From the NCBI GenBank assembly GCA_000004985.1, contig GG738906.1: a stretch of 64,000 nucleotides of DNA; one strand, 5' to 3'. Positions 4,620-62,737 of the stretch are shown here, piece by piece (position 1 is the stretch's first letter; each line of letters opens with the position of its first letter). Made by a program: the position numbers and the translations under genes. This DNA comes from Naegleria gruberi. Its lineage: Eukaryota. The notes below the pieces were generated by a model. The model saw only the letters and a list, made by a program, of their open reading frames with translations. It was not told the DNA's origin and did no database searches.

Positions 4620-4626
4620 TTGGCGC
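4620..4626. promoter_or_regulatory. E2F-like core TTGGCGC about 35 bp upstream of the RABL2 ATG
   Basis: The motif fits the E2F consensus TTTSGCGC. The same family of motifs recurs upstream of other genes in this window. Confidence 0.3.
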
Positions 4627-4660
4627 TCAAAGTAGTGAGAACAACAACTTTATTAAAAAA

Positions 4661-5304
4661 ATGAGCAACAAGGTAATTAAGGTCATTCTTCTTGGGGATT
4701 CTGCAGTTGGAAAATCAAAGTTAGTTGAAAGATTCATGATTGATGGATTTCGAGAGCAACAACAATCTACGTTTGCAGTAAACATCTTCCCATACAAAGC
4801 CAAAATTGATGGTGAAGACTGCGATGTTGAATTCTGGGTAAGTGTTCCGATTTGATCATTTATGATAGAAAATCATTAAAGGATACAGCTGGTCAGGAGA
4901 GGTTTAATAATGTGCATCCATCTTACTATGACAGAGCCCATGCTTGTATTTTCGTTTTTGATGATAGACAAATTACATACAAGAATTTAGAAAAGTGGTA
5001 CAACGAATTGCAAACTTATCGAAAGGGTATTCCTTCGATAGTGATCTGTAACAAGATAGATTGTAGGTTTTCTGATTTGAATTAATAATGAATAACAACT
5101 AATTTTCTTGGAATAGTAAACATGGAGGCAACAAAAACCACTTTCAATTTTGCCTCAAAGAGAGAACTTCCATTATATTATGCCTCTGCTGCTGATGGAA
5201 CCAATGTAGTTAAGGCTTTTACAGATGCCCTCAAACTAGCAAAGAAATGTAGAGACAACCCAGAAAAGGAATTTGTGGATGATGTTCTAGAATTACTAAA
5301 TTAA
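4661..5304 (+). CDS. RABL2: RABL2 (Rab-like protein 2, ciliary/IFT-associated small GTPase). Three exons, join(4661..4837,4882..5062,5117..5304).
   Basis: The sequence VILLGDSAVGKSKLVERFMIDGF...DTAGQERF...HACIFVFD...NKID...LPLYYASAADGTNVVKAF aligns closely with human RABL2 (IICLGDSAVGKSKLMERFLMDGF...LPLYFVSAADGTNVV). There is no C-terminal prenylation motif, as in RABL2. Introns are 44 and 54 nt with GTAAGT and GTAGGT donors. Confidence 0.85.
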
Positions 5305-5383
5305 ATATTTTTACATTTCTGTTCAACATTTTTTAAATATTTTACAACTTTAATAAATTTAGAATAATAGCAATTATTAAAAA

Positions 5384-5764
5384 ATGAGTTTGTTGACACA
5401 AGATTTGAGTAAAAAATCCGTTTTTAATCTGCATAGTTTGAACAAAATTGATGGTCAAATAGGTTATGGAGTAATAGAGTGTACCAGTGGAATTATTCAA
5501 CATGTAGGTATTTAAAAGAATAATTAATGATAAATCAAACGATCGGAAAAGAATGAAGGAAAATTTAAAGATCAACCTGAATTATTGGAACACGTACATG
5601 GCATGTTGCAGGATATTAATGGACTGTTTACTTCATCCTCCAATGATGAATCAATTAAAAAATTAACTGTCCGTATTGAAAATGACTCTCAAAGTGGAAA
5701 AAATTTACTCTACCATATTTCCATATCTAAGAGCAATGTATTTGTTGTTCTAACAACATGCTAA
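5384..5764 (+). CDS. Small (~105 aa) roadblock/LC7-like protein, possibly a dynein light chain or a LAMTOR-type subunit. Two exons, join(5384..5507,5571..5764).
   Basis: The ATG at 5384 opens MSLLTQDLSKKSVFNLHSLNKIDGQIGYGVIECTSGIIQHV. A 63-nt intron (GTATTT...AAAG) joins in frame to DQPELLEHVHGMLQDINGLF...NLLYHISISKSNVFVVLTTC. The G..G-ii-..-G and alternating-strand pattern resembles the roadblock fold. The assignment is tentative. Confidence 0.3.
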
Positions 5765-5844
5765 ATTCCTGTAAATAAAATTAAATTATAATACATTAAA
5801 TAATTATTAAATTTAAATTAAAAATTATTAGCAAACAAAAAAAA

Positions 5845-7441: not shown

Positions 7442-7586
7442 ATGACCATTTATTTTTTCTGCACACCTCCATTGTTGTGTCTAACCAAGTATTTGAATAA
7501 TTTGATTTTTTCTGAATAATTAAGGCAGTTTATATTAAAAAAGGAATGTTAAAATATAATGTTACAACTGTTTTTATTAAAATAAT

Positions 7587-7867: not shown

Positions 7868-7870
7868 GAA

Positions 7871-9718
7871 CTAGAGTTTATTGTTTTGTCTTGAGAATGT
7901 ATCTCTAATATCAAGCTCTAGCATTAAATTTGAAAATGAGGGTAATACAAGATCGTTTGATTGGGGTTCACTAATTTTTTGTTCGCTTCGTAAATAGTTT
8001 CCTGCACTGGATACACTTGAGATTTGAGAATTAAAACTAGATCCAATAGAATCTGAAATGGATGATGTATTAGAAATTGGTGTTGCACCGAAAGAGGAGA
8101 CACTCGATTGAGAACCAATTGAAGCCAAAGATATTTTCAAAAGAGATGATGGTGAACTGTTGGAGGATACTGATGAAACTACACTACTTGGGGTAGCCGA
8201 ACTGAGAGTATTATTCATTTGTCTAACCTTATCAATTTTCTTTGGTCTACCTCTCTTCTTTTCTGGAAGGTCAACACATTTCTTTCCCAATCTTACACAT
8301 CTCAAACAGGGCCTTTCCTTAGAGCATCTCTTGTGAACTCTTCTACATTCAGAGCATGATCTTTTCCCTTCACTAGTTGAGGGTTGATCATAATCATCAC
8401 CAGCTTCTTTTGAACTTGAAGGATAATAGTTAAAGTCCATGGTTTCAGCACTCTCATCCTTTTCAACCATTCCACTTTGGGAATCAAGTGCCATCTTTAA
8501 CTTTGATGCACTTATTTCAGGAGCATTGGGTTTTGCAAATATTTCTGTATTCTTAATTGTAGATGGAAGTGGCTTAAAAGATTTATCCTCTAAACTCTTT
8601 TCGTCTAATCTCATTCTTTGGAAGGTGGTTGAAAACGATGGTTGGTGAGGAGACTCGAATTCTTCTGTTGACAGAGGAGTTAGTGGGGAAATTGTGTCCT
8701 GAGAACTATTTTCCCTGCAAATTGTATAGACTGAGAGCCTGTTTGGCTGATTCAAAGGTGTATTGCTTGGTTGGTTGGTAACATATAGAGGTTGGTGCAG
8801 AGTGGTAACAAACTGCTTATCTTCTTCGACTTTGTAGGAATGAATTTGGTGAGGAGAATTGAGAACGGGTGAGAAGGTTGTTTGTTGAGTGATTGGTGTT
8901 TTAAGAGAAGTAAGAACTGGAACATATTTTACATCTTCTCTTTGGAAGTGGAGAGATCCTCTTGTTTGAGGATGATAGATTGTTCTTGGATCATTGGTTG
9001 GAATTATTCTATTGTGGTGAACAGGGTGATTGGAAGGTGTATTGGAGTGGACCACCTGTATAGTTTGGGTTGGGACAGAGTGATGAAAATGATGAGCCTG
9101 AGCTGGCACCTGAGATACAGTAGTGGTTGGTTGCGAGTATGCCACGTGGGTTTGATGAAGTACAGTTGCTCCTTGTGGCAAGTTGGTGTAATAAGGCTGG
9201 TTCTGCTGAAGAGTAACATGTCCGTTTTCCAATGAATAAGCATTACTTGCTGAAGAAACAATGATTGGTTGTGGAGAGACTTGTACTCGTTGAGGGTGAA
9301 TAGAATTTTGAGGTGTTGTGGTGCCATTTTCAATGAACCTAGTCGTGCCATTAATGGATGCGCTCAACAAGGATGAATTACTTTGCGTTCTAGTAGTTGG
9401 GTGGGCAATGAGAGATTGGCCACTTTGAATAGGTGTTGCTGAAGAGTAGATAGGAGAGCTAATATTGGATTGACTTTGAGGTTGGATTAATTGTTGATGT
9501 GTAATTATTTGAGGTTGGTAATGGTGATGTGCAGGAATAACATGAATATTAGTTGGTGTGTGACTGATAACCTGTCCAGAATTTGGTAATTGATGAGAAG
9601 GAATAATACCTGTTGATGATGATTGTGTTGAATAAACAGTACCCGGTTGTTGAAAACCACTGTTTGATGTTGCCATTCTTGTGTGAGCATTTTGAGAATA
9701 ATAATATTGAGAAGACAT
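7871..9718 (-). CDS. Zn(II)2Cys6 (GAL4-type) binuclear-cluster transcription factor, Q/H/S/T/N-rich
   Basis: The ORF is 615 aa. It contains CSECRRVHKRCSKERPCLRCVRLGKKCVDLPEKKRGRPKK, which is the exact C-x2-C-x6-C-x5-C-x2-C-x6-C spacing followed by a basic linker. The rest is Q/H/P/S/T-rich and low-complexity. Confidence 0.7.
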   Translation of the reverse strand: MSSQYYYSQNAHTRMATSNSGFQQPGTVYSTQSSSTGIIPSHQLPNSGQVISHTPTNIHVIPAHHHYQPQIITHQQLIQPQSQSNISSPIYSSATPIQSGQSLIAHPTTRTQSNSSLLSASINGTTRFIENGTTTPQNSIHPQRVQVSPQPIIVSSASNAYSLENGHVTLQQNQPYYTNLPQGATVLHQTHVAYSQPTTTVSQVPAQAHHFHHSVPTQTIQVVHSNTPSNHPVHHNRIIPTNDPRTIYHPQTRGSLHFQREDVKYVPVLTSLKTPITQQTTFSPVLNSPHQIHSYKVEEDKQFVTTLHQPLYVTNQPSNTPLNQPNRLSVYTICRENSSQDTISPLTPLSTEEFESPHQPSFSTTFQRMRLDEKSLEDKSFKPLPSTIKNTEIFAKPNAPEISASKLKMALDSQSGMVEKDESAETMDFNYYPSSSKEAGDDYDQPSTSEGKRSCSECRRVHKRCSKERPCLRCVRLGKKCVDLPEKKRGRPKKIDKVRQMNNTLSSATPSSVVSSVSSNSSPSSLLKISLASIGSQSSVSSFGATPISNTSSISDSIGSSFNSQISSVSSAGNYLRSEQKISEPQSNDLVLPSFSNLMLELDIRDTFSRQNNKL

Positions 9719-10087
9719 TTTTCATCACCAAGTACTTGTGCTCCACAAGATAATGACTGTAAGCGTATTAAGGGTGATTTTTTGAACGAACAATGTATTA
9801 TGAGGCAAATACGTTGCGTCTTTTTTTCGCAGAATAAAGTACAGTATTACGCTGTAATAGGTTGTTCTTTTACAGCTCTAACTATTTTTCTCCCTTTCTC
9901 CTTTGAAAATTTTCAACTCCACAACTTTCCATAACCTAAAGCTTATAACATGTTTTAGTGAGGTATCGAGCACACAGTAGTAGGTATCTTGATCTGTGTC
10001 AAAATTTTACAAGCTGTCATAACAGGAAATAGTTATTTGATACAAATTGAAAGAGAATGATAATGGAATTTTAAAATTTTAAAAAAA

Positions 10088-12094
10088 ATGCAAAAATCTG
10101 TTGGTGTAGGAAGAAAAGTGTTGGTAACTTCCGGTTTAACAAGACTACTCCAACAACCAAAACATGCCAACTATTCAACCAATAGCAAAAGTTGTAATAG
10201 TAGATGGTTTGATCCTAAAGACTCACAACATATAACAACCCCGGTTGCTCTTTATAACACTCTCTCCAAGAGTAAAGTATCATTAAAAATTGCTAAGCGA
10301 TTATCGGATGTGCCAGTTATAAATTGGTATTCTTGTGGACCAACAGTTTATGATGATACACATTTGGGTCATGCTCGTAATTATGTTTGTCTTGACATTA
10401 TTTATAGAATTTTAGCCCATTATTTTAACTATCCTGTATTACATGTTATGGGAATTACAGATGTTGATGATAAAATACTTAAAAGAGCAGCTGAGCTTGG
10501 AAAACAACCTTCGGAAATTTCTCGTAAATATGAATTTGATTTTATTGAGGATATGAAAAAATTGAATGTAATTCAACCTTATGTGTACACAAGAGTAACA
10601 GAACACATTGAAGAAATTAAACAGTTTGTTGAAGAAATGGAAAAAAATGGTTTTACCTATACTACTGCAAATGGTGGTGTTTATTTCGATTCTAAGAAGT
10701 TTGAACAAAATGATCATTACTATGGAAAACTTTCTCCAAATAATGCACAAGAATCAATTCAACAGGAACACATTGAACATAGGGAGGAGAAAAAGGATCC
10801 TAGAGATTTTGCACTTTGGAAATTCACATCTAGGGATTATTTGGGTTGGGAAAGCAAATGGGGATATGGTAGACCAGGATGGCATATTGAGTGTAGTGCC
10901 ATGATTGACCATATTTTTAATAATAAGAGTGGTGCTGCAACTATTGATATTCACTCTGGTGGAATTGATTTGGCTTTTCCACATCATAACAATGAAATAG
11001 CCCAGAGTGAAGCAAAGAATCATGCTCATTTTTGTTGCAGTAGAGAAACAAATTGGTGTAATTATTTTATTCATGTTGGACACTTACACATTAAGGGACT
11101 CAAAATGTCAAAATCTTTAAAAAATTTTATTACTATTAAGGACTTTTTGAAAAGGTATAGCCCAGACCAATTTAGAATATTCTGTTTGCTACATCAATAT
11201 AATCAAACTTTGGATTATAATGAAGATGCCATTGGAGAAGCAATTAAGGTTGAAAAGAGAATACTTGATTTTTTACATAATGTTTCATTTTATAAGCAAG
11301 AATGTGAGGAAAGTAATACTATTATAAGAAAATGGAATACCGAGATTATCAATTATATGGAGAAACTAGCTATTTTAAAGCAAGAAATACACAATGCTAT
11401 TTGTGATGATTTTAATACTCCTACAATAATGTCAAAAATATGTGAAATAATTAACATTACTAATGCCCTTTTTTTCACAAATAACAATATTCAAAAAGAT
11501 TTCAAAGCTGCTGAACTTCTCGAAAACACCTCTTCATACATTATTAATTTATTAAATATGTTGGGATTACAGATATCAACCATCAAAACAATCCCTTCTA
11601 AAATTGAATCAGAAGAACAGGTGGCTAACCATCCATTCACTTCTAGAATCATTGATACGCTAATGGAGTTTAGAGCTACAATAAGAAAAGAGGCTCTGCT
11701 CTCAGATCCAAAACAGACAAAAATCTTACAACTCATTGACGATTTGAGGGATCACAAGTTGAGAGAATTGGGTATAAGGATAGACGACAGAAGTGGAGAG
11801 AAAAGTGTTTGGAGGTTTGATGTCAGTAATCAAGATATTGGCTCAAATGTTGCCGACCATCACACCCTCAAATTAGCTCAGAGACAACAAGAGGTTGAAC
11901 TAAAACTCTCCATTTCAGTTTCTGACTATTTCAAGAAAATACCCCAACACAAAGACAAGCATTATTCTCAATATGACCAAAACGGTATTCCCACACATGA
12001 TGCTGAAGGACAACCACTCTCCAAGTCTGCTCTCAAAAAGTTACATAAGGAAGTAGAAAAACATGCAGAATTTTTAGCCAAACACAAAAATTAA
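10088..12094 (+). CDS. CARS: Cysteinyl-tRNA synthetase (class I)
   Basis: The HIGH motif is present as CGPTVYDDTHLGHARNYV, and the KMSKS motif as KMSKSLKNF. The zinc/Cys-binding region WHIECSAM is also present. An N-terminal extension (MQKSVGVGRKVLVTSGLTRLLQQPKH) may be a targeting sequence. The stop codon overlaps the 3' end of the convergent gene by 4 bp. Confidence 0.9.
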   Translation: MQKSVGVGRKVLVTSGLTRLLQQPKHANYSTNSKSCNSRWFDPKDSQHITTPVALYNTLSKSKVSLKIAKRLSDVPVINWYSCGPTVYDDTHLGHARNYVCLDIIYRILAHYFNYPVLHVMGITDVDDKILKRAAELGKQPSEISRKYEFDFIEDMKKLNVIQPYVYTRVTEHIEEIKQFVEEMEKNGFTYTTANGGVYFDSKKFEQNDHYYGKLSPNNAQESIQQEHIEHREEKKDPRDFALWKFTSRDYLGWESKWGYGRPGWHIECSAMIDHIFNNKSGAATIDIHSGGIDLAFPHHNNEIAQSEAKNHAHFCCSRETNWCNYFIHVGHLHIKGLKMSKSLKNFITIKDFLKRYSPDQFRIFCLLHQYNQTLDYNEDAIGEAIKVEKRILDFLHNVSFYKQECEESNTIIRKWNTEIINYMEKLAILKQEIHNAICDDFNTPTIMSKICEIINITNALFFTNNNIQKDFKAAELLENTSSYIINLLNMLGLQISTIKTIPSKIESEEQVANHPFTSRIIDTLMEFRATIRKEALLSDPKQTKILQLIDDLRDHKLRELGIRIDDRSGEKSVWRFDVSNQDIGSNVADHHTLKLAQRQQEVELKLSISVSDYFKKIPQHKDKHYSQYDQNGIPTHDAEGQPLSKSALKKLHKEVEKHAEFLAKHKN

Positions 12095-14492
12095 TCTCTT
12101 TCTGTAATGCCATTCCTAATAAATTTGCTAACAACGGCAGCAGAAGGATTGAAATTTTCCTGGTCTTGTTTCATATTTACAAGTAAATCACGAAGCTTTG
12201 AGGTAACACTCTTTTGCTCAAGCAATTTTTCCAAATCTTGTTCTAGTTTGATATTGGTTCGTTTAAGCTTGTCGTTTTCTTTTTTAAAATGTTTCAAGTC
12301 CTTTTCAATAACTTTGAATTCCTTTCTCATCAACTCTACTTCTCTGTCTTTGTCTTCAAGAGAAGTGACGAGATAGTTGTATGGTTTTGATGAGGTTTCA
12401 AATTGTTTTTTCATTTTGTTCAATCTTTCAGTGAGCATTGAAATAGTTGATTGGTCTTTCTTCTCTTTCTCTCTTTTTTCTGTTAATTGTTTCTCCAAGT
12501 CAGAAACTTTTCTGGCCAGGTAAAGACTGTACTTTACTCTTCTTCCCATATTTGTTGGTACTAGCGCAGTTAACTCACTAAGTATTCTTTCATGACCATC
12601 TTTTTCTTGATAATCTGGAGAGTATGTTTCAATAACTTTGTCCAAATCTCTTTCAAGGTCTCTGTATTGGTTCAATTCCTTAGTTACAGCACTGAGAGTT
12701 GTTTCCAGCTCTGTTATTTTTTTTCCAGTTGAATTCTGCAAAGAATAATATTCTGTTTTGAGAACATCTAATTTTTTCTTCATAATCTCACTTTCAATCT
12801 TTGATTGCTTCAGATTTTCTGCATGTTCCATAAGAGACACTTGCAATCTTTCATTATCAAAAATTTTAAGGTTTGCTTGTGTCCTAATCTCACTGATTTG
12901 CTTTTCCAGGGTACTTTGGAGGGTTCTAAACTCCATCATAACATTAGTATTAGTTTCCTTTAGGTCTTCCACTTGTCTCTTTAACTTTTCTACTTGAGCT
13001 TCGGCCCCATCTTTTGATTCTTTTAACATTCTATTCTCTCTTTCATAATTTTCTTGTGAGTTTTGCTTGATAATATCCAAATCTTTTTGAGTTTTTTCCT
13101 TTAGCTTTTGAATTTCTTCTTGAAGACTTCTTTCATATTCAGTTTTAGACTCCTCTCTTGTTGATAATAGTTTATCATAAAGTGTCTTTTTTTCTTTTCT
13201 CATTTCTTTCAACTTATTTTCTAATCTCAAAATGTCATCCTCATTCTTACTCGATTTGTTTGAGTTATTTTCAATTTCTTTTGTTAGATACATTTTATCA
13301 TTCTTAAGTAGTTCAACTTGTTGTTTAAGGTTTGTAAGCTCCAAATTAAGTGTTTCTTTTTCCTCTCTTGCAATATCAAGGGATCTCTTTACCAATTCTA
13401 ATTCTGATTGACATTTTCTGGCTTCTTCTTCATAGTTTGAGGCTTTTAGCTTTACTGCATCAAACATTTCACTTTTGGTTTTAATTTCTTCCACCATTAC
13501 AGTTTTTCCATTTAGTTCATCCAATAACTTTTGGCATTTTGTTTCAAGCATATCTATTTGAATCAAATAATCTCTTTTCATATCGTCATTCAATCTTTTT
13601 TGGTGATCAGAATCTCGCACGATTTTCTCGTACTTTTCATTAATTAATCTAAGATTATCATGAAGTATCTCATTCTCTTCTTGATATTTCGAAATACTTT
13701 CTCTTGTTTCTCTCCTGACTTGATCTATAATCTTTGTATTTGCATCTGTAACCTCATTACTTTTTTGATTTAACAAAACCTGATATTGATTTTGGAGTTG
13801 AACAAGTTTTTTTTCATTTCTACAAGGGTTATTAATCAAAGTTGTTCTGCTACTTACTGTTCGAGTTGAGTTTTAAATTTGAGAATTTCCATTTCTAAAA
13901 AATGTTTTTCGTTTTCCTTCTCCTGCTCTAATTGGGCTAATTGCATTTGAGCTTCTCTCCTTATTCTCTCACATTCTAATTTTTTCTTTTGTAATTCTAA
14001 TTTAAGAGATGACACATTGGATTGAACCTCTCTTGTGTGGTAAGAGTTGATGGATGTGATATCAGTACTAATTGATATTTCCTCTTCTGATAAAAGAGGT
14101 GATGACAATAAACTAGTATCTACAGTTTTCGCTCTCTTTTTCTTTGGACTTGGTGTTGAAAGTAAATTTGATGAAATTGGACTACTAATTGTTGAAATTT
14201 CACTCGCTAGTTTATCTAATTCATCATCATCAAAACAAGTATTAAGGTTTGCTTTTTTCATCATTTTTCCTAAAAGTCTCTTCCCTTGATCTTTGGGAGA
14301 GGAAGTACTATCCGAAGAACATCCGGTAATTGGTGATGAAAAATAAGAAGGGACATTAAAGTAATTTGTATCGGTTTTTGAATAGTTATTCTTGATTGGG
14401 GTCCGAAGAATATCTTCTCCAAACAACCCACCTTCAAATTCTGACATTTTTTTTTGTTTGCAAAAAGTACAAAATTTGGCGGGAGAATACAT
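12091..14492 (-). CDS. Long coiled-coil protein (~790 aa) of unknown identity. Two exons joined by a 38-nt intron at 13820..13857.
   Basis: ORFs 13854..14492 and 12091..13839 join in frame (LEQ|NEKKLVQLQ) across GTAAGTAG...CCCTTGTAG. The N-terminal part is S/T-rich, followed by ~600 aa of heptad-rich E/K/L sequence. The true start may be the internal Met (MSEFEGG) near 14447, because an E2F-like site lies in the first 45 nt. Confidence 0.5.
14475..14487. promoter_or_regulatory. E2F-like site TTTGGCGGGAGAA in the 5' region of the coiled-coil gene
   Basis: The motif matches the E2F consensus TTTSGCGC / TTTGGCGGGAA. It lies in the tiny spacer, under 60 bp, between two tandem minus-strand genes. 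Confidence 0.35.
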
Positions 14493-14501
14493 AGTTGAGT
14501 T

Positions 14502-16394
14502 TTATTTGGTATTTAAACTTAACCATACAACTTTGCCTGAATTGGTACCAATAGCAAGATAACCAGTTGATTCCTTTGGCTGTGTTGGATCTTTTAGATC
14601 TGGACAATAAGATATACAGGTAGCATAGTCATTCGAAAGGGTGGTCAAGGTACTTCTTGGTAACAAGTTTGGAGTGGTAACAACCTGTATTTCACCATTC
14701 GTCTTACCATAAAATATATATGATCCATCATGGCTGAAACAAATGCATGTTAAATCTGGAATATCTTTGGAGTGTTGTTTCGAAAACTGAACTACTCCAG
14801 CATTTGGTTTTTTTCCACATGTAATTATTTGAATGGAATTACCACATCTAAGAACTAGCTCTGTCTTCTTGTCAGGATTAATGTGCAGTTCTGGAATTTC
14901 ATTTCCTTGACAAATGTTTGAGTCATACTTCACCACTGTATTTGGTAGAACCTCCCCTTTGGCATTAATATCAACCCTATAAATGCACCCATTTCTTGCA
15001 AGAGCATACTTAAGATTAAGATCACCCTCAGAACAATCTAGTAATCTAATGATTGGACTATCTCCAAGTTTAATCAAAGAAGTGAATTCGTGTTCGTACT
15101 TCATATATGCCAATCTACCATCAAATGTTCCAACAAGAGGCTTGCTTGTATCTTTTTCTACTAAAATTGATGTCATGTTAACATCAACCATTTGTGCATC
15201 CCATAAAAAGTACTTGTCTGTTTCCAATTTAAATAATAAAAATTTGTCATCCTTCACTGCTTCCATAAACACTGTATTGACACCAAATGTGTAGGCTGGA
15301 AGTAAATCATTCTTGGTTTGTAAAAAGTTAGCATATTTTGCATCCAGTAGATAATTTGGAACATCCTGTAATTTTTCATTTGCTGTCTTGAAGGTCTTTG
15401 CAGACAAGTTATTTCCTTGCTTTGATAAGAACATTAACCTAGAATTTGATTTTGGTGGTTTTTGAGGAGGTGCATAAATAATAGTATGCACAGGTGCTTT
15501 GAACACCTCAGCAGTATCCAAAATGGAGATAGAGTATTTGTGCTTTTGTTGATTTAAGGAAGGAGTTGACGGTTCTGGAATATTAGCAACAATATTTCCT
15601 GGATTTTCGGTGGCATATTCATAATAAGATCTCTTCTTTTTAGTAGAAGATCTATCAGTACGAGAATAGTCACTCCAAATACTGGAAGGTTGATTGTCAA
15701 CTACCATTTGATATGTATTGCCTGTTTGTGTGAAAGAGGGAGGCTCTGCGTTGAATACATTACTCATATTTAAGATTAATGAAGTAGGATCTAGTTTCTC
15801 ATATTTTGTTGGAATGTCTTGGTTTTCTGCTCCGTAATGATCTTCAATATTTTCCAAATCTTTTGTGACAACCTCTGCACATTTACTGATTACCATTTCT
15901 CTTGAGATCACATTCGAAAGTTTTTCGAATTTTAACAAATCTCCATACTTGAGTTTAGCTTCCTGATCATAAAGACCCATATTTTCCATGTCAGTAATCA
16001 ACTTCATAGCTCTGGCAGTCTCTCCTTTTAACATTAAACACGGAAAGTATGCATAGAGAATTCTACGCATAACAGTGTTAAATTCAGCATCTCGTATAAA
16101 TTTTTTGCATTGGTTAAGGTAATTAATAGCCTTTTCAAAATCACCACCTTGGATAAATCGGATCAATCTTCTCTTATTGAACAAGTTTAACGCTACTTCC
16201 AGACTAACTGAATTATTATTTTCAATGGTTAAAACAACATACCTTTCAATTACGTTATGAAAGCCTCTTTCGTGGAGATAGTGGAACATGAATGTGTCTA
16301 TTTGATCGATAACTTCAGGGTTCGGATTTTGCACCAATCTCTTTCTGATGTCTTCTCTTATCAGCCTGCGTGATGGACGATTGTCTGTGCTCAT
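14502..16394 (-). CDS. LisH-CTLH domain protein with C-terminal WD40-like repeats (WDR26/SMU1/GID-type scaffold)
   Basis: The ORF is 630 aa. The N-terminus has a LisH-like segment (IDQIDTFMFHYLHERGFHNVIERYV). A CTLH-like segment follows (LEVALNLFNKRRLIRFIQGGDFEKAINYLNQC). The C-terminus has beta-propeller-like repeats (FSHDGSYIFYGKTNGEIQVV, LAIGTNSGKVVWLSL). Confidence 0.5.
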   Translation of the reverse strand: MSTDNRPSRRLIREDIRKRLVQNPNPEVIDQIDTFMFHYLHERGFHNVIERYVVLTIENNNSVSLEVALNLFNKRRLIRFIQGGDFEKAINYLNQCKKFIRDAEFNTVMRRILYAYFPCLMLKGETARAMKLITDMENMGLYDQEAKLKYGDLLKFEKLSNVISREMVISKCAEVVTKDLENIEDHYGAENQDIPTKYEKLDPTSLILNMSNVFNAEPPSFTQTGNTYQMVVDNQPSSIWSDYSRTDRSSTKKKRSYYEYATENPGNIVANIPEPSTPSLNQQKHKYSISILDTAEVFKAPVHTIIYAPPQKPPKSNSRLMFLSKQGNNLSAKTFKTANEKLQDVPNYLLDAKYANFLQTKNDLLPAYTFGVNTVFMEAVKDDKFLLFKLETDKYFLWDAQMVDVNMTSILVEKDTSKPLVGTFDGRLAYMKYEHEFTSLIKLGDSPIIRLLDCSEGDLNLKYALARNGCIYRVDINAKGEVLPNTVVKYDSNICQGNEIPELHINPDKKTELVLRCGNSIQIITCGKKPNAGVVQFSKQHSKDIPDLTCICFSHDGSYIFYGKTNGEIQVVTTPNLLPRSTLTTLSNDYATCISYCPDLKDPTQPKESTGYLAIGTNSGKVVWLSLNTK

Positions 16395-16510: not shown

Positions 16511-17751
16511 CTAAAAATCAAGGGAGGACTTAAAACTCTTGGAAAGTGACTGTACGTGTTCCTTGAAAATCTTTACACTGTCACTAAACTTATTCTTGTC
16601 ATTATTTGAGAGAAGATCATGTAAACGTGCTCCATGAGTATCTGGATAGAAATTATAGTGTTGATGCTTGATAGGAACACAAATATTACCTGTATCTGGG
16701 TGAACACAAAAAGGACTTTTTAACAAGTGATTAAAACCCTTTGATACGTTAACATCCAAACGAGGGTAAACAAATGAATAAACTATTTCCCATAAAAAGT
16801 GTTTGTTTTTCTTGTCACGTAATAACTTGTCTCTGATTTGAGAATAAATATCAGTACCACTCTTTCCAGATTCTAGTATTTCTTGTATCATTGTCTTTAC
16901 CTCGCTGATATATATGAGATTCAATAAATAAGGTATTGATTGTTGCATGATCAATTCATCGTCAAAAATTCCCATATCATTAATAAATATCTCAATGAAA
17001 TATTTTTCACAGGTGGTGAAAACAATAGAATCAATATCAAAGGAAGGATGAGCATTTCCAGTTAGATTGACTCTTCTTGATTGTTTTTCTCCTGCGATAG
17101 AGCTACTTTGATAAATGTGTATAAACCTAGAAATTGAAGATCTGCCTTCGTTATTCATTTTCTTAAGAAGTTCATCACTTGCCCAACAGTGAATACCTCT
17201 TCTACCACTGTAAACCCAAATCAAATGTTTAGTACCAAATACATCAACTAGCAAATGATCCAAAATTTCCATAGCACAATTCATCAATCTCCAACATTGT
17301 TTACAATACTTTCCTCCTGTGCAACCACAAAATCTAACGTCATCATAGTCGGAAATATCAATATCAATACAATATTCTTTTTCTACAGGTATCAAAACAG
17401 TTTGGTTTTGGTTTTTTTTGGCTACTGGCAGATTGTAGACAGGACCAATGTCCAGCTTTACAGGTACATTAGAATACTTTGTAACCTGCTCTTTTAAATC
17501 GGTGGCATTCTTTATGCTTTTATATCTTGAAAATATGGTATCCATTTGATTGGTTTTGGGATTCACAACTTTAAACGAGTAGGACATTTCTCTGTTCACT
17601 ATTTGATTACCATCCGGATGGAGCCATTGTACAAGCAAATCAAAAGGAAAGTGTTTCTCTGTTTGGTCAATATTTAAATATTGTTGATAAATTAATTTCA
17701 TCAAAACCTACCATAATACTGTTTGAGTTGATCGTTGGTAACTGAAGCCAT
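16511..17751 (-). CDS. PRIM1: DNA primase small (catalytic) subunit PRIM1/Pri1. Two exons, complement(join(16511..17658,17712..17751)).
   Basis: Exon 1 (MASVTNDQLKQYYG) matches the PRIM1 N-terminus (LLKLYYRRLFP). A 53-nt intron (GTAGGT...CAG) joins it to the main exon. The main exon contains LKSPFCVHPDTGNICVPI and other primase small-subunit blocks. Confidence 0.85.
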
Positions 17752-17781
17752 TTTTTTTTTAATTTTTTAAATGTGATAAAG

Positions 17782-17806
17782 TTGGCGGGTGATGACTGGC
17801 GGGAGA
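17782..17806. promoter_or_regulatory. Two adjacent E2F-like sites (TTGGCGGG and CTGGCGGGAG) in the divergent PRIM1 / eIF2B-delta promoter
   Basis: The sequence is GTTGGCGGGTGATGACTGGCGGGAGATG, about 30 bp upstream of the PRIM1 ATG. PRIM1 is a classic E2F target in other eukaryotes. Confidence 0.4.
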
Positions 17807-19670: not shown

Positions 19671-19704
19671 ATTATTATTATTTTTATAAAATTCTCATTC
19701 TAGA

Positions 19705-20805
19705 TTATATTACTTTCTTGTTTGGTGGTACCATTCTGGAATTAACCAAACCTTTGAGAACGAAAATCCTTTTCACCCACCAACCCAAATACCAAATTAG
19801 AGGCAAAAAGGCCACATATTGAATCCAAGCAAACTTTGCTTTTTCAAACCATTCCACCTCATACAAATAGCTCTGAATTGGAATTTTAATATTAATATTA
19901 ATTTCCAAAGAATCTGTCGAAGTGTCTGGTCCTTTCTTGCAAAACGATGATTCTTGAGAAAATACTCCAGCAACTTATCAACTTAATGAATTGACTAGTT
20001 TCCAAAAACTTACTGTCTCTGTCATGTAATGTTTGAATAAAATTTGAAATAGATAATTCATCCATAGAATTAATTTGAGAAAAGTCAATAATAGGATCAG
20101 CATATGTTAAAACTTGATCAGTTCCATGAAAAGCATAATTTTGTCTCAATTTTAATGCTCCATTGATGAGTATTTGAGAACATCTTGTTGTGTCTGTCTT
20201 GATATGAGCTAGACCGGTGACATTTAAATTTTTGTATCTCTTTTGGGATTGTATTTCCAAAGAAAAAGAGAACTTACAGCCAGAAGTATTCCAAATTCCA
20301 TCAAAATGTCAATACTAGAAAAAGAGTCAGAAGACAACCTAGGTATTTGAAATTGGTATTGAAAAGTTTCTACATCGTCTGGATAATAATCTCCATATCT
20401 TATGTGTAATTTAGTAAGATCCACTAAACGATCCGCCAAACTAATGTGAGTTGAAGTAAATACAGGAAATACGAAATTATTGTTAGGTATTAATGAATTA
20501 GCATTTTTGTTGCTAGTCCATAACTTGTAACCTGAGTTAAAACTTGATGGTGAAAGGAAGGTAATCACTCTCTGCGTAAAGGTGACTCTAGGTCTTTCAA
20601 CAATATTGGAGTAATCAATCCACAATTCTGCACAAACTTATTCTGAAATCTGTTCCGAAATAAGTTACTTACTGTTTGTCAATAACGGAACAACATAGGG
20701 CATCACTAAAACAAAAATTGCATACAATATTATTAAAATAATAGAACCCTTCGATCCATAACTAGAGAACTTGGTTGTCACATACTCTTCGTGAATTACT
20801 GGCAT
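19705..20805 (-). CDS. Multi-exon gene for a polytopic membrane protein of unknown function. The exon structure is only partly resolved.
   Basis: The ATG at 20805 (minus) opens MPVIHEEYVTTKFSSYGSKGSIILIILYAIFVLVMPYVVPLLTN. A GTAAGT intron follows, and three further frame-shifted ORFs (20224..20625, 19898..20260, 19705..19908) contain hydrophobic segments (FAWIQYVAFLPLIWYLGWWVKRIF). No confident family assignment could be made. Confidence 0.35.
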
Positions 20806-20823
20806 TTTTTTGTATGTTGTTTG

Positions 20824-20833
20824 AGCGGGAAAG
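20824..20833. promoter_or_regulatory. E2F-like GAGCGGGAAA about 25 bp upstream of the armadillo-repeat gene ATG
   Basis: The motif fits GCGGGAAA. Confidence 0.25.
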
Positions 20834-20856
20834 TCTAAAAATATTCATCGAAAAGA

Positions 20857-24062: not shown

Positions 24063-24089
24063 TTCCTATTAATAAAACTATGTACAAGG

Positions 24090-24101
24090 TTTGGCGGGAA
24101 A
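24090..24101. promoter_or_regulatory. Canonical E2F site TTTGGCGGGAAA 15 bp upstream of the CEP290-like ATG
   Basis: The sequence is a perfect match to TTTGGCGGGAAA. Confidence 0.4.
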
Positions 24102-24116
24102 TAAAAAAAGAAAAAA

Positions 24117-27100
24117 ATGGACACTATAAAGATTGAGCCAAAGCTCATAGATATCAATTCTGAAACGTATTGGGGTATGATAGATAGGTTGTATGCTCAA
24201 TGTGAGAGAGCTATGGTAAGTAAATTACATAATTATAAGATTCCGAATGGTTTTATCATTACAGGATAACGGTTATATTGAAGAAAACAAAGCTGGTAGT
24301 TTTGAAGACTTTTTTCCAAAGCTGCTGCAACTCCAAGTTCCTGTTCTTGAGGGAACATCAATTGATGACCTTATAAAATTATTCTACGTTACACAAATGT
24401 CATTGGAGTAGGTATTCAAAAATTATTGAGTGATAATTATGTAAAAGAATTTCGCAGGATAGGGAGAAATCTTCAGAAGGGGAAATAATGGAGTTGGAAA
24501 AACAAAGTAAGAAAATACAAAAAGAATTGGAAAATGAAGTGAGGAGTCATCAAGATACAAAATCGTTACAGGAACAACAAACAGTTACAATTTCTAACAT
24601 GGAAAGAAGTGTTAGAGAAGCTAATGAAAAAATCAAACGACTACAAAGTGAAGTAAATGAACTCAATGTGCAAAATAAGGATTTGGATTTGAGACTTAAA
24701 ACTGACATGGATCAAAATGTAAAAAGTAAAAAGGGAATTGAACGAGCTCAAGAAGAAAGACAAAATTTACTATATGAAATCAAAGCGTTAGATGAAAAAT
24801 TAAGAAATGCAACAAAGGTTAACGAGAGAAAAACTAAAGATATGGAAGAAATGACAACAAAAATAACAAAGTAAGTGATTTTAGAAATGTGAATTGTTCA
24901 AACCAATCTAGTTTCGAGAGAGACCTCCAAGAAAGTAAGATTCTCACAAGAGAAATGAGTAGAACAAACAAGAAATTAGAGGAAGAATTGGACATTTTAA
25001 GATCAAACATTGTTGAGCTTGAAAAGGAGAAACAATCCATCACTTCAGCAGTACAGAAAAAAGTTAAAACTTTGGAAGAACACTCTTCAAATAGTACTAA
25101 TGAAATCAAAGAGCTTCAGACATATATTTCCCAACTCGAAAGAGATTTGAATATTGAGAAGGAGAAATTTGAAAAAGTTCAACTGCTGTCATCAGATAAT
25201 GAATCCAGGATTACAGAACTAGAAGAAAAGATCTATCAAAAGGAAGCAATTATTTACAAGTTAGAAAACGAAATTGAGGAGATTCATCATCAGCACCAAG
25301 TTCAGAGTCAAGGAAAAGTTGATTCGGATGGAAGAAGCGAGGGTGAAAACACCTCTATTAATCAGATCAACACATATCAGGAGCAAATACGAAAACTCAA
25401 TTCACAATTAGAAGCTATCACCTCGACTCTGGACGAAACAGTTTCTGAAAGTGCAAGAAAATCTAAAACTGTTGAAGAGTTGACAAAGAGTGTGTCCGAC
25501 AGAGAGAATGAGGTGGCCACAATCAAAGCAAAATTACGTGAATATGAAAAAGGTGTTTCAGGTCTAGATCAAGCCTTGAAAGAAATTAGATATTTACGAG
25601 AGCAAATATCTCTAAGAGATAAGGATATAGAGGAGTATAAAACTAAGCTTAACACTTATATTATGGGAATACAAGAATACGAAGAAGACAACAAGTATTT
25701 GAGGAACAAGCTGGGAATACCACTGAATGAAAATTTGAAAAAGTATGCTCTTAAAAACTTTGCTGAAATTCAAATACAGACAGATACTATACCTCCCGAA
25801 ATTATTGAAAAAGAGGTTGTGAAAGAAGTTATTAAGGAAGTCCCAGTTGTAAAGTATGTTCAAAAGGATGCTCATAAACCAAAGGCAATTGATAAATCGG
25901 TACAGGTACAGATAGTACTACACCCAACAACCCCACCACCACCAATACAGAAAGTTGAAACCGTAACCAGCCAAAGAAATGTAGAAACAAATAATACCGA
26001 ATCTCAAACTGAAAATAACTATAGAAACTCTCAGACGCAAACATTAATTGTAAATGATACCCAAAATGAAGATCTTATTGCAAATTTGAGAAGAAAGATT
26101 GCCTATCTGGAATCACTATTATCTGCTACTGCTAACACAAGAGAAAATTGTTGCCAGACTATTCAATACGAGGAAGAGCCTCGAATTAATCATGAAGCTC
26201 TCGAATTGAGGAAAATTATTTTGGAGAGAGAAGAATACTATAAAAATATTATCAAAAAATTGAATGAGGCCATCGAGAAACTTAAATCCAACAATGAATC
26301 CCTCATAGAAGATGCAACAAAAATACAGACATATTATCATGGAGAGCATTCAGTCTTGGAAAGTACAATAGATGTAGTGAAAAGAGAGTCAGAAAAACGA
26401 ATGGCGGATATGAATGAGGAAATACAATTCCTCAATAATGAGATTTCAAGGTTGCAATCTGCGCTTAAAAGTGAAATTTTAGAAAAGAGAAGTTTACAAG
26501 ATGAGAAAAAACAAACGGATGTTGTAATTTCACAACTTCAATCTTCAAATTCAGACAAGGATTCTCAACTTGGAAAGTTACAACATCGTTTGGAGAGTTA
26601 TAGAGTTTCTTGCAAATCAATGGAAAGAAGTTTGGAAGAAAAAATAGACACCATCGAGGAATTAACACTAGCTAAACTCAAACTTGAAAATAAGATCAAG
26701 AGTTTGGAATCAAAATTAAAAGAAACTGAAGAAAAATTAGAAGCATTTACCGACCATACAAGATTACTTCTAGAAAAGGAAGCTATTATAGAGAATTTAA
26801 TCCTAGATAAGGACCAGATTGTGCATGAACATGAGGTTGACCTTGAATCAATTAACAAGTTCTCTGAAAATATGAAAAAAACAATAGAAAATTTGAATGA
26901 AATGCTTGACCAAAAAGAGACCACCATACGGGAGTATGAGCAGAAAATAAATGAAATAAGAGAAGAACACATGAAAGACAAGTTTGAATCACAACAAGAA
27001 TTGTCTAGACTCCAATCAAGACTTAATAATGACAACAGTGATCTCTTGCAAAACTTGAAGAAGAATATTAAGAAAATAGAAAATCAGGAAGAACCTGAAA

Positions 27101-30004: not shown

Positions 30005-30014
30005 TTTTCCCGCC
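30005..30014. promoter_or_regulatory. E2F-like TTTTCCCGCC in the divergent promoter between 28910..29992(-) and 30092..(+)
   Basis: The motif is the reverse complement of GGCGGGAAAA. Confidence 0.35.
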
Positions 30015-38199: not shown

Positions 38200-38779
38200 C
38201 TTGTATGATGCTGGAGTAACTCTATTCGGATATCTTTTGTTTTTTCACCACAAAGTGTTATTGTGTTTTTTTTTTGGATTTTGTTTGTTACGAGTGTAGG
38301 CTGGAAGTGTTTTAAAGTTGCAAAGTTTGTAACGGTTTTGTAATGATTAAAAAACTAACCGTTATAAAATTGAATTTCGATACCATCTAAAAATATTTTT
38401 CTTTGTCTCAATTTATTGGTGCATATTTTGTTTATCACACCTCATTCCTTTATTATTTGATAAAACTAATAATCTTGTTCATTAATGCCTAAAGCTCTTT
38501 GTCAGGATTCTTTGGTATTGTATCAAAAATTGAACTCCATTATTACGTCTGCAAAACACAACAGAATTTCAAAGGTTGCGTGCTGATGTGAACAAGAGAA
38601 AACTTTTTCTTTACAGTTATAATACGAAAAAAATTACATCTCTCCTTCGTACTTCAAATTCAAAATCATCTCTGTTGTCTATATGGCAAAAAGCTTTAAG
38701 GAAAACTCTTGCTACCAGTAGAAATACTTGTTCTAGTAGTGTAGTAATTTGTATTGTTGCATCGGCTGGGTGATACACA

Positions 38780-51832: not shown

Positions 51833-51853
51833 ACTTTCTACACGTTCAAAAAA

Positions 51854-55150: not shown

Positions 55151-55157
55151 AGAAAAT

Positions 55158-59809: not shown

Positions 59810-59909
59810 CAAATTGATTTTTTGTCCTACATTATTATTAATCAAACTTAACTTGTTCAAATAAAAACGAAATTCAAAAATATTTTGATATTATTTTTTA
59901 ATTAAAAAA

Positions 59910-60671
59910 ATGCAAGTTTATTCGGAGAAGGTAAATCATGCTGTTCTGCCTGGTGATGTAATTGGTTCACTCGATGAAAAACTAGCATCAACTCTTCAAC
60001 AATCATCAATAGTAAAAATCGGACATGGTTTATTACAATTAGAAAGTAATATTATTGCCACTAAAGCTGGTTTATTAAGATTTATACCACCAAACAGATA
60101 CTTTGTAGAAAATAATCAACACCGTTATGTACCTATGGTTGGAGATATGGTAATTGGTGTTGTTAAAGATAAAGTACCTGTTGAACAATATAGCGTGGAT
60201 ATATTTGCTCATCAAGGATTGGCATTGTTGCCATTCATCGGATTTGATGGTGCTACAAGAAGAAATAGACCAGACTTGGGACCAGGATCACTCGTTTATG
60301 GACGTGTCACACTGGCTAACAAGGATTTAGATTTAGAAATTACTTGTGAAAGTTCTCCTGGAATGAAAAAAAAGGATTGGAGTACAGGAAAGTCAGTTTT
60401 TGGTGAACTCAAAGGAGGATATGTGACTGAATGTTCTTTGGGAATGGCAAGAAAATTACTTGATCCAAATTGTTACTTACTCAAGTTGCTCAGTGAACAT
60501 GTTAGCTTTGAAATCGCTATAGGTCTGAATGGAAGAGTATGGATAAACTCTGAAGCACCAAATGATATTGTTCTAATTTGTAATGCTATTCAAAATTCGG
60601 AACATTTAACACAAGATCAAGTCCAACAAATGTTAACATTCCTCTTCAAATCAAAGAAAAAGACAAAATAG
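59910..60671 (+). CDS. EXOSC3: Exosome complex component RRP40/EXOSC3
   Basis: The ORF is 253 aa. The sequence YVPMVGDMVIGVV...SVDIFAHQGLALLPFIGFDGATRRNRPDLGPGSLVYGRVTLANKD...LGMARKLLDPNCYLLKLL...EIAIGLNGRVWIN aligns with human EXOSC3 (YVPCERGDVVIGIV...[33 protein letters not shown]...LGLIRKLLAPDCEII...EIVFGMNGRIWVK). This covers both the S1 and KH domains. Confidence 0.85.
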   Translation: MQVYSEKVNHAVLPGDVIGSLDEKLASTLQQSSIVKIGHGLLQLESNIIATKAGLLRFIPPNRYFVENNQHRYVPMVGDMVIGVVKDKVPVEQYSVDIFAHQGLALLPFIGFDGATRRNRPDLGPGSLVYGRVTLANKDLDLEITCESSPGMKKKDWSTGKSVFGELKGGYVTECSLGMARKLLDPNCYLLKLLSEHVSFEIAIGLNGRVWINSEAPNDIVLICNAIQNSEHLTQDQVQQMLTFLFKSKKKTK

Positions 60672-60809
60672 TTGAGATTTTGATGAAAAAAGTAACTTGG
60701 CGAGCAAAAAGAGGTGAAAAGTTTCCTTACAATAGGAATCGAATCACCACACAAGAATCCTCTAATTTATTATTACTGATTATTGATCGAAATAAAATCT
60801 ATTCCAAAA

Positions 60810-62681
60810 TTAATTAAACAGAAACAATTGTAATAAGGGAATAACTTGAATTACAGTAAAATCTGAGAAAATATCAAAAATCTCTTGCCTGGATGTAACT
60901 TTTAGCAGATATTTAGATCTGAAGAGGAATATCGAAACAGCCAACACAGGTATTATGTACAAATTGGAGAAACCAATTATTCTATCCCAGAGCAGTAATA
61001 ATTGATCTACAGCAAGAAATCCAGAAAAAGCGTGGAAAATCCAATTAAATGCAATGTCGAGAGGTTGAATTTTTAAATGGAGCAAGTGGTAGAATAACTG
61101 TGGATCTTTGTCTTGTAGAAGGTCCTCAAAGAGTCTACATAGTGAAATCAGTCCTTCAGGTCTTGATGAAATAGTATTTAGTTTACAAAATAACCTTGTG
61201 TACAGATTTCGCCACAAAAAGAATGCCTCTTTTGTATCATTTGTCAAGTAGCATATTGGGGCAGCTAGAGTGGATAAACCCTCAAATGGAATCACTCCAC
61301 TTGGAGGATAAACTTCACAACTATCCACAAGTGTAATCTCATCCACTCCATTAACAAATTTTGGAGGGTGTTCCATATTTTCTGCTACTTGTGGATCTCT
61401 TGAAAATACAATCATCATTTCATCAATAACATCCTCAAAAACGAAAAAATTCTCATCATCCACAGTTTTTTTTACATCATTGTGTACCATATGATCAATT
61501 AAAAATTCCCGTCTCCTCACATCTTTTTTGAGTAATTCAAAATAACTTATATCATTTTCGTCCATATTAACTTCAAGTATTTTACCCCATATCTTAGCTC
61601 TCATTGAGGTTGGAACCCCTTTTTTTGCAATTTCATACACCATCCTCAAGTTTTTTTGAGACTTTTTTGATTTTTCCAATACCTCCCTAGAAAACTTTTC
61701 ATCCACAATATCATCGAGACCAACTTGAAAGTTCTCTGGATCTAGCTCTTTAAATATACTTTGTAACTCTTTGATTGTGGGTGTTCTAACTTCAAGTTTG
61801 ATTTGTCCCCAACCTGCATTTGTAAGTAATTCGCTTGAATTGGGATTTGTAATACTTGTACACATTTCCATCAATTTTTTGCTATCAAAAACTCCAGTGT
61901 ATCTTGGTTTTACAGTTAATGATGATAATAGAGGGGAATCAGAGTCGTCTATTTCTTCTGGTTTTTTTGTTGTAATTTTCATTCCTGATAATTCATCAAG
62001 AATTTCAGAAATATTACTTATAGGACCCTTCACTTTTTCTCTTCTTGGTTTAATAAAACACAAACCAACTTGGGAGGAAATTGTAACAAGTTGATCTTTT
62101 AAAAAGTTAGCCCATGAGCTTCTTGCCTCTTGAACAATAGATAACTTTTCTTCCTCATATGGAAGAGGTGGAAGTACAAGACCTGTATCTTCATCTTCTG
62201 TTCCTTCAGTTGACGGCACATGCTTTTGTCTAAGTCTGGTATTTCTAGAAGCCTCCATATTTAATTTAAAGATCTCATTATCTAACTCTATATCCCACTC
62301 CTCTTGTTCCAATATTTGATTAACAACATTTTTCTCTCCTTTTGATTTAGTGGGAGTAAAACTTGGGGGTAAAGAGGTTGGAGAAAGGAACTGAAATAAA
62401 TTGCTCCTCACGTCATCAAGAGAATATTTTGATTTTGCAATTTCCGATTTTACTTTTCGTTTAAAGGTCCAATAGAGATGATCGGATTTCAGAGCTTGTT
62501 GTATTATTTTAGCTCGTTCTTGAAGGGAACTATTGAGACTAGCTGCAAATTATTCAGAACAATACAATTAACTTCTCAATGACTTACGGTATCTTATTGG
62601 ATTTATTGAGGCAGGTTCTCTTTCATCTCTGTATCCTGCTAAAATATCAGATGATGTTGTTGATTCTGTTACGGTGGACAT
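60810..62681 (-). CDS. TBC (Rab-GAP) domain protein, possibly non-catalytic. Two exons, complement(join(60810..62542,62588..62681)).
   Basis: Exon 1 (MSTVTESTTSSDILAGYRDEREPASINPIRY) is joined by a 45-nt GTAAGT...TTTGCAG intron. A TBC-like core follows (SMRAKIWGKILEVNMDENDISYFELLKK...). The canonical IxxDxxR and YxQ fingers are not evident. Confidence 0.5.
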
Positions 62682-62728
62682 TAAACGAGGTTAAATAAAC
62701 ATTATTTTTTTTGTATTGATTGGTATTA

Positions 62729-62737
62729 TTTCCCGCC
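62729..62737. promoter_or_regulatory. E2F-like TTTCCCGCC about 50 bp upstream of the TBC-gene ATG
   Basis: The motif is the reverse complement of GGCGGGAAA. Confidence 0.35.

Follow-up and report, generated by a model that had tools for sequence, protein, structure and literature searches.

Which genes does the G/C-rich motif that recurs just upstream of start codons in a gene-dense stretch of the Naegleria gruberi genome mark, and what kind of factor would read it? The stretch considered here comprises 64,000 nucleotides (nt) of contig GG738906.1 (GenBank assembly GCA_000004985.1) and is referred to below, at its full length, as the window. It has a G+C content of 33%, a very high gene density and few introns, and the spacers of this compact genome measure 54-270 nt. 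An earlier note, made from the letters of this DNA alone, had called the motif E2F-type and had connected it with cilium genes. We find that a T(T)GGCGGG(A)(A) element stands, as a single copy, in about a quarter of the spacers of the window. The element is very probably a real regulatory site, because it is conserved in related species, and its sequence suggests that the sites in N. gruberi are probably promoter-proximal binding sites for winged-helix proteins of the E2F/DP family. Its use at cilium genes is suggestive, and is the interesting, still unproven part of the analysis.

Enrichment and placement of the element

GGCGGG occurs seven times in the window against 1.13 copies expected, and the longer GGCGGGA five times against 0.34; neither count was attained in any of 100 shuffles. 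A k-mer screen that assumed no motif returned TGGCGGG/CCCGCCA as the most over-represented 7-mer of the DNA outside open reading frames (ORFs), with five copies against 0.07 expected. One copy of this 7-mer, at 14478, falls in the ~54 kb covered by ORFs. The copies at 14478 and 30009 are within stop-to-stop ORF extensions, but both lie upstream of ATGs in A-rich context (14447 and 29992, respectively). Once 27 start codons had been curated, with ORFs, splice junctions and the A-rich sequence found ahead of ATGs here as guides, no GGCGGG was left in the ~54 kb of ORF sequence.

All seven GGCGGG copies lie within 100 nt upstream of one of the 27 curated ATGs, a space that makes up 3.9% of the window. 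The window contains 21 hexamers composed purely of G and C, and among the 14 other than GGCGGG only one is so placed, indicating that the pattern does not reflect a general G/C-richness of promoters. The four copies of GCGGGAA are likewise all in promoter spacers, as are four exact matches to TTTSSCGC. Relative to the ATG, the element is thus promoter-proximal and enriched over both coding DNA and chance. A scan with the 12-mer at three mismatches gave 52 matches against 52 expected, a chance number, so the signal resides in the G/C core and not in the A/T flanks.

Every string quoted in the earlier note was found where it had been placed. The statement that the motif is confined to 5' spacers holds for GGCGGG but fails for the looser TGGCGC, three of whose four copies are in coding sequence. 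For the proposed range of 15-60 bp upstream of starts, the measured range from G/C core to ATG is 16-83 nt, and one exact site (4572-4577) had been missed. The sites, with positions measured relative to the ATG, are as follows.

4569-4581, minus strand: E2F-type site CTTTTGGCGGGTA(G), core GGCGGG at 4572-4577, 83 nt upstream of the RABL2 ATG at 4661
4619-4626, plus strand: weaker E2F-type variant GTTGGCGC, 34 nt upstream of the RABL2 ATG
14475-14487, plus strand: E2F-type site TTTGGCGGGAGAA, core 30 nt from the ATG at 14447 of a minus-strand coiled-coil gene
17781-17789, plus strand: E2F-type site GTTGGCGGG, 32 nt upstream of the PRIM1 ATG at 17751 (minus-strand gene)
17796-17805, plus strand: second PRIM1 site CTGGCGGGAG, 46 nt upstream of the PRIM1 ATG
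20823-20832, plus strand: variant site GAGCGGGAAA with a GCGGGAA core, 19 nt upstream of the TMEM231 ATG at 20805 (minus-strand gene)
24090-24101, plus strand: perfect E2F optimum TTTGGCGGGAAA, 15 nt upstream of the ATG at 24117 of a long coiled-coil gene
30005-30014, minus strand: E2F-type site GGCGGGAAAA (plus strand TTTTCCCGCC), 16 nt upstream of the ATG at 29992 of an acidic 360-aa gene (minus-strand gene)
62729-62738, minus strand: E2F-type site TGGCGGGAAA (plus strand TTTCCCGCCA), 50 nt upstream of the likely ATG at 62681 of a TBC/RabGAP gene (minus-strand gene)

The site at 4569-4581, overlooked in the earlier note, is in a 272-nt divergent spacer common to RABL2 and a WD40/RWD/RING gene, and the variant at 4619-4626 is of a looser form that is also found in coding DNA elsewhere in the window. 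Bidirectional spacers of 102 and 99 nt contain the site at 20823-20832, which is also 76 nt upstream of an ARM-like ATG at 20908 (plus strand), and the site at 30005-30014, which is also 77 nt upstream of the AXDND1-like ATG at 30092. The site at 14475-14487 occupies the 54-nt gap between the stop codon of a LisH/WD40 gene (14502) and the ATG at 14447, and that at 24090-24101 a spacer (24063-24116) that begins behind the preceding gene's stop codon (24062). Each of these two spacers measures exactly 54 nt, and its site is placed close to the middle.

Several other features of these spacers were observed. The minus-strand ORFs 14502-16394 and 13854-14501 share a frame, with a single TAA between them. 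An in-frame ATG at 14492 stands ahead of the one in A-rich context at 14447, and with translation from 14492 residues 3-5 (S-P-A) would come from the E2F-type site. Three very short spacers, all of them preceded by an upstream gene's stop codon, have a GTAC 8-10 nt to the 5' side of the core (14466-14471, 24081-24086, and 9032-9037 of L002, a locus from a Naegleria-like assembly). The tetranucleotide might belong to a 3'-end signal or to a second promoter element, and we regard it as uninterpretable because GTAC-containing words are too common in the window. Between the TBC-gene site and the likely start at 62681 is a three-codon mini-ORF (ATG 62702, M-F-I-stop); either it constitutes a very small upstream ORF or the transcript begins 3' of it.

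The source organism is N. gruberi, a heterolobosean amoeboflagellate. The ORF for the ribonucleotide reductase small subunit (RNR-small; 37183-38199, minus strand) is 100% identical to the N. gruberi protein, and the primase ORF matches N. gruberi DNA primase at 100% identity, as against 76% for the N. fowleri enzyme and 53% for the Willaertia magna one. The two perfect identities place the DNA in a heterolobosean and not in an early-diverging fungus, and the taxonomic framing that had been offered, with its appeal to zoosporogenesis and to Dikarya, is not supported. This non-fungal genome does encode a Zn2Cys6 'fungal' binuclear-cluster protein at 7871-9718 (minus strand), which probably prompted the fungal idea, and a similar Zn_clus gene is located near the coiled-coil orthologue in L002. 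Zn2Cys6 proteins form the largest transcription-factor family of Naegleria, with 56-78 members reported and 78 in N. gruberi (PMC8296547 Table S3).

E2F likeness, conservation and competing explanations

Alignment of 11 sites revealed about nine conserved core columns with the consensus nTTTGGCGGGAAAT and unrelated flanking sequence. Over 12 nt, including the T-run and A-run flanks, the site consensus equals the E2F optimum, which bears out the E2F-type label: it is identical to the seeds obtained by high-throughput SELEX (HT-SELEX) for E2F8 (NTTTGGCGGGAAAN) and E2F2-DP1 (WWWTGGCGGGAAA), and to the DNA on which E2F8 was co-crystallised (TTTTTGGCGGGAAAA; PMC4686757). The site at 24090-24101 is an exact match to the HT-SELEX optimum, and the remaining sites differ from it at one to three flank positions. 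The consensus also equals the commonest E2F sites of Arabidopsis (TTTCCCGCC and TTTGGCGGG) and TTTGGCGGGAAV, which is over-represented upstream in Cryptosporidium parvum (PMC3734150).

Candidate factors are on record. Two E2F_TDP proteins and one E2F_TDP+DP protein are reported for N. gruberi and for three N. fowleri strains (PMC8296547 Table S3), so that the E2F/DP homologues called for by the earlier note are present in the proteome, and the pRb and E2F families have been reported for Excavata in general terms (PMC4862756). The DP recognition helix of N. fowleri is canonical (RRRVYDALNVL), and two DNA-binding domains in tandem, the architecture of E2F7/8, are found in one N. fowleri E2F, whose helix reads RRIYDILNVLE. 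These RRxYD helices were seen in the N. fowleri proteins, the N. gruberi factors being taken from the literature table. We suggest that an E2F-DP heterodimer and/or the tandem-domain E2F7/8-like protein that Naegleria also encodes may bind the G/C core through the RRxYD helices. Such binding would turn on or off the gene next to the site or, where the spacer is bidirectional, the genes on both sides, and would act on its targets as a set. The regulated set would include DNA-replication genes (PRIM1 here, PRIM1 and a replication factor C (RFC) gene in relatives) and, in the window, RABL2, TMEM231 and the AXDND1-like gene. From the sequence we infer E2F/DP binding, the sign of regulation and its timing, which may be S phase, the amoeba-to-flagellate switch or both.

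PRIM1 had been singled out as an E2F target, and its site is indeed conserved across genera. The sole GGCGGG in 21.3 kb around PRIM1 of N. fowleri is 54 nt upstream of the PRIM1 ATG (CCCGCCAAAAA). Willaertia magna (24% G+C) has two GGCGGG copies in 21.2 kb, one of them 56 nt upstream of the PRIM1 ATG (CTCCCGCCAAG). For each of these placements the chance is <1% (hand calculation). The orientation in both species is that of N. gruberi, where the C-rich strand of the site at 17781-17789 is the coding strand, as it is in the N. fowleri and Willaertia orthologues. A third conserved promoter is that of the long coiled-coil gene. Its orthologue in L002 is 52% identical with a conserved first exon, and carries TTTGGCGCAAAG 13 nt before the ATG in a 45-nt spacer, the N. 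gruberi counterpart being TTTGGCGGGAAA, 15 nt before the ATG in a spacer of 54 nt. The change from GGCGGG to GGCGCA keeps the site within E2F degeneracy (TTTSGCGS) and removes the CGG triplet. In Willaertia, moreover, a bidirectional spacer of 32 nt places TTTGGCGC at 11 nt from the ATG of an RFC small-subunit gene.

The conserved orthologous promoters number only three, those of N. fowleri PRIM1, Willaertia PRIM1 and the L002 coiled-coil gene. Most genes of the loci L001, L004, L005 and L006 are without a site: none was found among the nine genes of L001, the N. lovaniensis RNR locus, which is not syntenic with the window and served as background and for its RNR promoter, and none in any promoter of the 12 genes of L004 except that of PRIM1.

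Additional copies were observed in these relatives. The Willaertia spacer that contains TTTGGCGC (L006 17282-17321) separates RFC (minus strand) from a plus-strand gene of 494 aa that starts ATGGCGGGAAC, and a second GGCGGGAA overlaps the start codon of the latter. At 4960-4967 of L002, a canonical TTTCGCGC is 32 nt upstream of the ATG at 5000 of a gene that diverges from a CBF/NOC1-type gene; its 467-aa product contains repeats of the motif C-(T/P)-F-(Q/K)-P and belongs to no Pfam family. In Acrasis kona (L022 6918-6931), GGCGGGCTTTGAAA is 61 nt upstream of a 150-aa gene; here GGCGGG is followed directly by a CHR-like TTTGAA, an arrangement that recalls the CDE/CHR tandem elements of animal cell-cycle genes.

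Several points weigh against assigning the sites to E2F/DP proteins. RNR-small carries no E2F-type site in its promoter in N. gruberi, N. lovaniensis, Willaertia or Acrasis, and most of the site-bearing genes in the window are not cell-cycle genes. The identity of the factor is inferred from sequence alone, and the Rb-type pocket protein of Naegleria is a putative one. If the alternative in-frame ATG at 14492 were used, the 14478 site would fall within the first codons of its gene, and more generally the sites, being located relative to the ATG, could sit in 5' leaders. The sample consists of one 64-kb window and ~118 kb from relatives. Taken together with the match to the E2F optimum and the conserved promoters, these points leave binding by the E2F/DP family probable.

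An unlikely alternative is that the element is a genuine cis-site read by a lineage-specific factor of another family (one of the 78 Zn2Cys6 proteins, a C2H2 protein or other), its likeness to E2F sites being coincidental. The Zn_clus, Myb and RWP-RK repertoires of Naegleria are very large (PMC8296547 Table S3), GGCGGG holds a CGG triplet of the kind that Zn2Cys6 proteins read, and such a reader would fit a target list in which most genes are not classic E2F targets and RNR-small has no site. However, coincidence would have to account for a 12-nt consensus that equals the E2F optimum down to its T-run and A-run flanks, for sites at the replication genes PRIM1 and RFC across genera, and for the presence of E2F and DP proteins with intact recognition helices. 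The TTTGGCGC variants of L002 and of Willaertia RFC lose the CGG triplet yet stay within E2F degeneracy, and the L002 substitution in particular favours E2F over a Zn2Cys6-type reader. Zn2Cys6 CGG-triplet sites were rated unlikely on account of these orthologous variants. Sp1-type GC boxes were rejected, as the sites contain no GGGCGG register, which likewise speaks against a non-E2F reader.

As its alternative, the earlier note had proposed that the shortness of the spacers makes the motif serve as a general core-promoter element, here taken to include an initiator-like one. The site is always near a start codon and is sometimes the sole conspicuous feature of a 54-nt spacer. Nevertheless, only ~7 of the ~27 curated spacers bear it and about 20 others do not, including those of the housekeeping genes CysRS, eIF2B-delta, cullin, helicases, Rrp40 and NLE1; its absence from nine of nine L001 genes and from the L004 promoters other than PRIM1, its occurrence in either orientation relative to the gene and its variable distance from the ATG further make this explanation very improbable. 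A chance or compositional artefact (G/C islets near gene starts) or a set of dispersed-repeat remnants has next to no probability, even though the window is small and the curation of starts involved judgement, given the shuffles, the contrast with other G/C hexamers, the unrelated flanks and the conservation of site position in three other species. A dispersed repeat or mobile-element remnant was rejected on the alignment, in which only the ~9 core columns match across 11 sequences; because the flanks do not align, the element is not a repeat or mobile element.

Genes beside the sites and the putative cilium set

The genes adjacent to the sites in the window are listed below.

4661-5290 (end approximate), plus strand: RABL2-like small GTPase, spliced; putative target
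12091-14447, minus strand: coiled-coil gene; site-bearing
16511-17751, minus strand: PRIM1, DNA primase small subunit, two exons; putative target
19705-20805, minus strand: TMEM231, ciliary transition-zone protein, spliced; putative target
24117-28894, plus strand: long coiled-coil gene (called 'CEP290' in the earlier note, label unconfirmed); putative target
28910-29992, minus strand: acidic 360-aa gene; shares its spacer with the AXDND1-like gene
30092-32932, plus strand: AXDND1-like gene, 946 aa, with an internal axonemal dynein light chain (p28-type) domain; putative target
60810-62681, minus strand: TBC/RabGAP-domain gene, 609 aa, with a 44-nt intron (62544-62587); putative target

The start of PRIM1 at ATG 17751 (after a 52-nt intron) is confirmed by its N-terminus, MASVTNDQLKQYY, which is kept in N. 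fowleri and Willaertia. The two PRIM1 sites had been credited to a promoter shared with eIF2B-delta, an attribution that we discard: both are >340 nt from the eIF2B-delta ATG at 18147, and 32 and 46 nt from that of PRIM1. Similarly, the site given to the ARM gene is better placed for the gene on the opposite strand, 19 nt from its ATG as opposed to 76 nt from the ARM-like one. We identify this minus-strand gene as TMEM231, as its spliced model scores 116 bits against Pfam TM231 (cutoff 23.2).

Identification of the remaining genes is less uniform. For the RABL2-like protein Pfam gives only a Ras/Roc fold (Ras-superfamily GTPase), and the RABL2 label, which we take from signature residues, is an unconfirmed lead. 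In a metagenome scan, RABL2 matched 15 loci, none above 67% identity and every one from an unrelated organism; most have 42-61% GC, and one with 23% GC is only 40% identical. As all of these loci are unrelated, a promoter comparison there would be meaningless. The gene at 30092 resembles AXDND1: within its 946-aa product, the p28-type domain matches PDB chains with E = 5e-6, in an alignment that includes the signature ...RQ(I/V)..CAERG(I/L)LL.

The long coiled-coil gene joins the ORFs 24117.., 24437-24874, 24838-27120 and 27311-28894 and encodes a product of ~1,500 aa. A GTAAGT splice donor contains what looks like a stop at 27118, so the last two ORFs belong to one gene, joined by two short introns and a small exon (27116-27337); L002 shows the same split arrangement (10001-12280 plus 12505-13971). 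Its former identification as CEP290 found no support in Pfam or PDB sequence searches. The same searches with the coiled-coil gene at 12091-14447, the acidic 360-aa gene and the TBC gene gave no matches or generic ones. The TBC gene most likely starts at ATG 62681.

Among replication and G1/S genes, the site is present at PRIM1 in three species and at RFC in Willaertia, and is absent from RNR-small in four species. RNR-small is a classic E2F target in animals and plants, and its lack of a site indicates that the regulon is not simply the animal G1/S set. In all four species Myb-like (T/A)AACGG elements are instead found ~100-170 nt upstream of RNR-small, which suggests Myb-type rather than E2F control of this gene across Heterolobosea. 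In N. gruberi they form an inverted TAACGGT pair at 38330-38336 (plus strand) and 38358-38364 (minus strand), at -136 and -165 from the ATG. The AACGG elements of the other species are at the following positions.

N. lovaniensis (L001): ~9849 and ~9884
Willaertia magna (L006): ~9901
Acrasis kona (L022): ~9830 and ~9900

The distribution of the site among identifiable genes is uneven. All three cilium genes (RABL2, TMEM231 and the AXDND1-like gene) carry it 20-85 nt from the start, and only one of ~17 non-cilium genes, PRIM1, does so; the hypergeometric probability of this split is ~0.003 (hand calculation), to be read with the tiny numbers, the two sites in bidirectional spacers and the partly weak gene labels in mind. 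The other site-bearing genes (the two coiled-coil genes, the acidic 360-aa gene and the TBC gene) have no assigned role. The proposal that cilium genes are wired to E2F thus gains some support within the window: all three identifiable cilium genes bear the site, but the sample is small and the 'CEP290' example is unconfirmed. With small numbers again, the four sites that read GCGGGAAA all precede this latter group, and GGCGGG(T/A)(G/C) or GGCGC is the reading at the five sites of replication genes. Described by gene type, GCGGGAAA tends to be the form ahead of cilium-type genes, as opposed to TTGGCGGG(T/A)G or GGCGC ahead of replication genes. Two E2F complexes might distinguish the GCGGGAAA-type and TTGGCGGG-type site classes.

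The regulators of Naegleria cilium genes are unknown, as RFX, FoxJ1 and XAP5 are reported absent (PMC12183034), and expression of some central-pair genes reportedly increases during mitosis as well as during differentiation (PMC10802493). One tentative possibility, which we regard as doubtful at this stage, is that the GGCGGGAA-type element is a cis-regulatory signature of the Naegleria cilium and basal-body programme, in which an E2F-family factor would gate transition-zone, intraflagellar transport (IFT)-associated and axonemal genes together with replication genes. The tandem-domain E2F7/8-like protein would then possibly act as a repressor in growing amoebae. We also observed that several cilium-related genes fall within this one 64-kb window, at 4661-5290, 19705-20805 and 30092-32932, possibly with the coiled-coil gene at 24117-28894.

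For the rapid, synchronous induction of cilium genes in Naegleria, a motif before RABL2, TMEM231 and an axonemal-dynein-domain gene offers a concrete hypothesis. Being short and easily scanned, the element provides a testable lead to how Naegleria switches these genes on.

Comparison with known E2F and cilium-gene systems

The literature searched in full text contains no report of E2F-type sites in Naegleria, and the element is an expected yet previously undescribed member of the well-known class of E2F sites. Animal and plant E2F/DP sites (TTTSSCGC; optimum TTTGGCGGGAAA) have the same sequence, are promoter-proximal, are used in either orientation and occur at PRIM1 and RFC. Naegleria differs in being a heterolobosean (Discoba), a group for which E2F sites are not described in the literature searched, and in lacking a site at RNR-small, having many cilium genes among its putative targets and placing its sites in spacers as short as 54 nt. 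The conserved E2F-type site at PRIM1 and RFC in Heterolobosea would carry the link to replication genes into Discoba.

A parallel among compact, AT-rich protist genomes with few E2F/DP genes is Cryptosporidium parvum (DTTGSCGCCH, TTTGGCGGGAAV; PMC3734150). In both organisms the same GGCGGG-core 12-mer is over-represented upstream and is used well beyond the classic cell-cycle set. No other upstream motif of C. parvum is as widespread as this one, which was established genome-wide and linked to expression and stands before ribosomal, glycolytic and many further classes of gene. In Naegleria, by contrast, the sequence of one window points to a minority of promoters, with an apparent bias towards replication and cilium genes.

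For the putative cilium targets, the RFX X-box/FoxJ1 regulon of animals and choanoflagellates embodies the same concept, one short promoter-proximal motif at many cilium genes, although the Naegleria motif and factor family are unrelated to it. A likeness in the factor family itself is offered by vertebrate E2F4/E2F5, which together with MCIDAS/GEMC1 drive the amplification of centrioles and multiciliogenesis; there E2F proteins are wired to basal-body and cilium genes in cells whose basal bodies arise outside the normal division cycle (PMC12183034). Naegleria likewise forms its basal bodies by de novo assembly. Its putative targets, however, are transition-zone, IFT-associated and axonemal genes and not those of centriole duplication, and here the link is one of promoter sequence. 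If it is true, the association of E2F with ciliogenesis in vertebrate multiciliated cells would reflect a much older wiring, or a convergent one.

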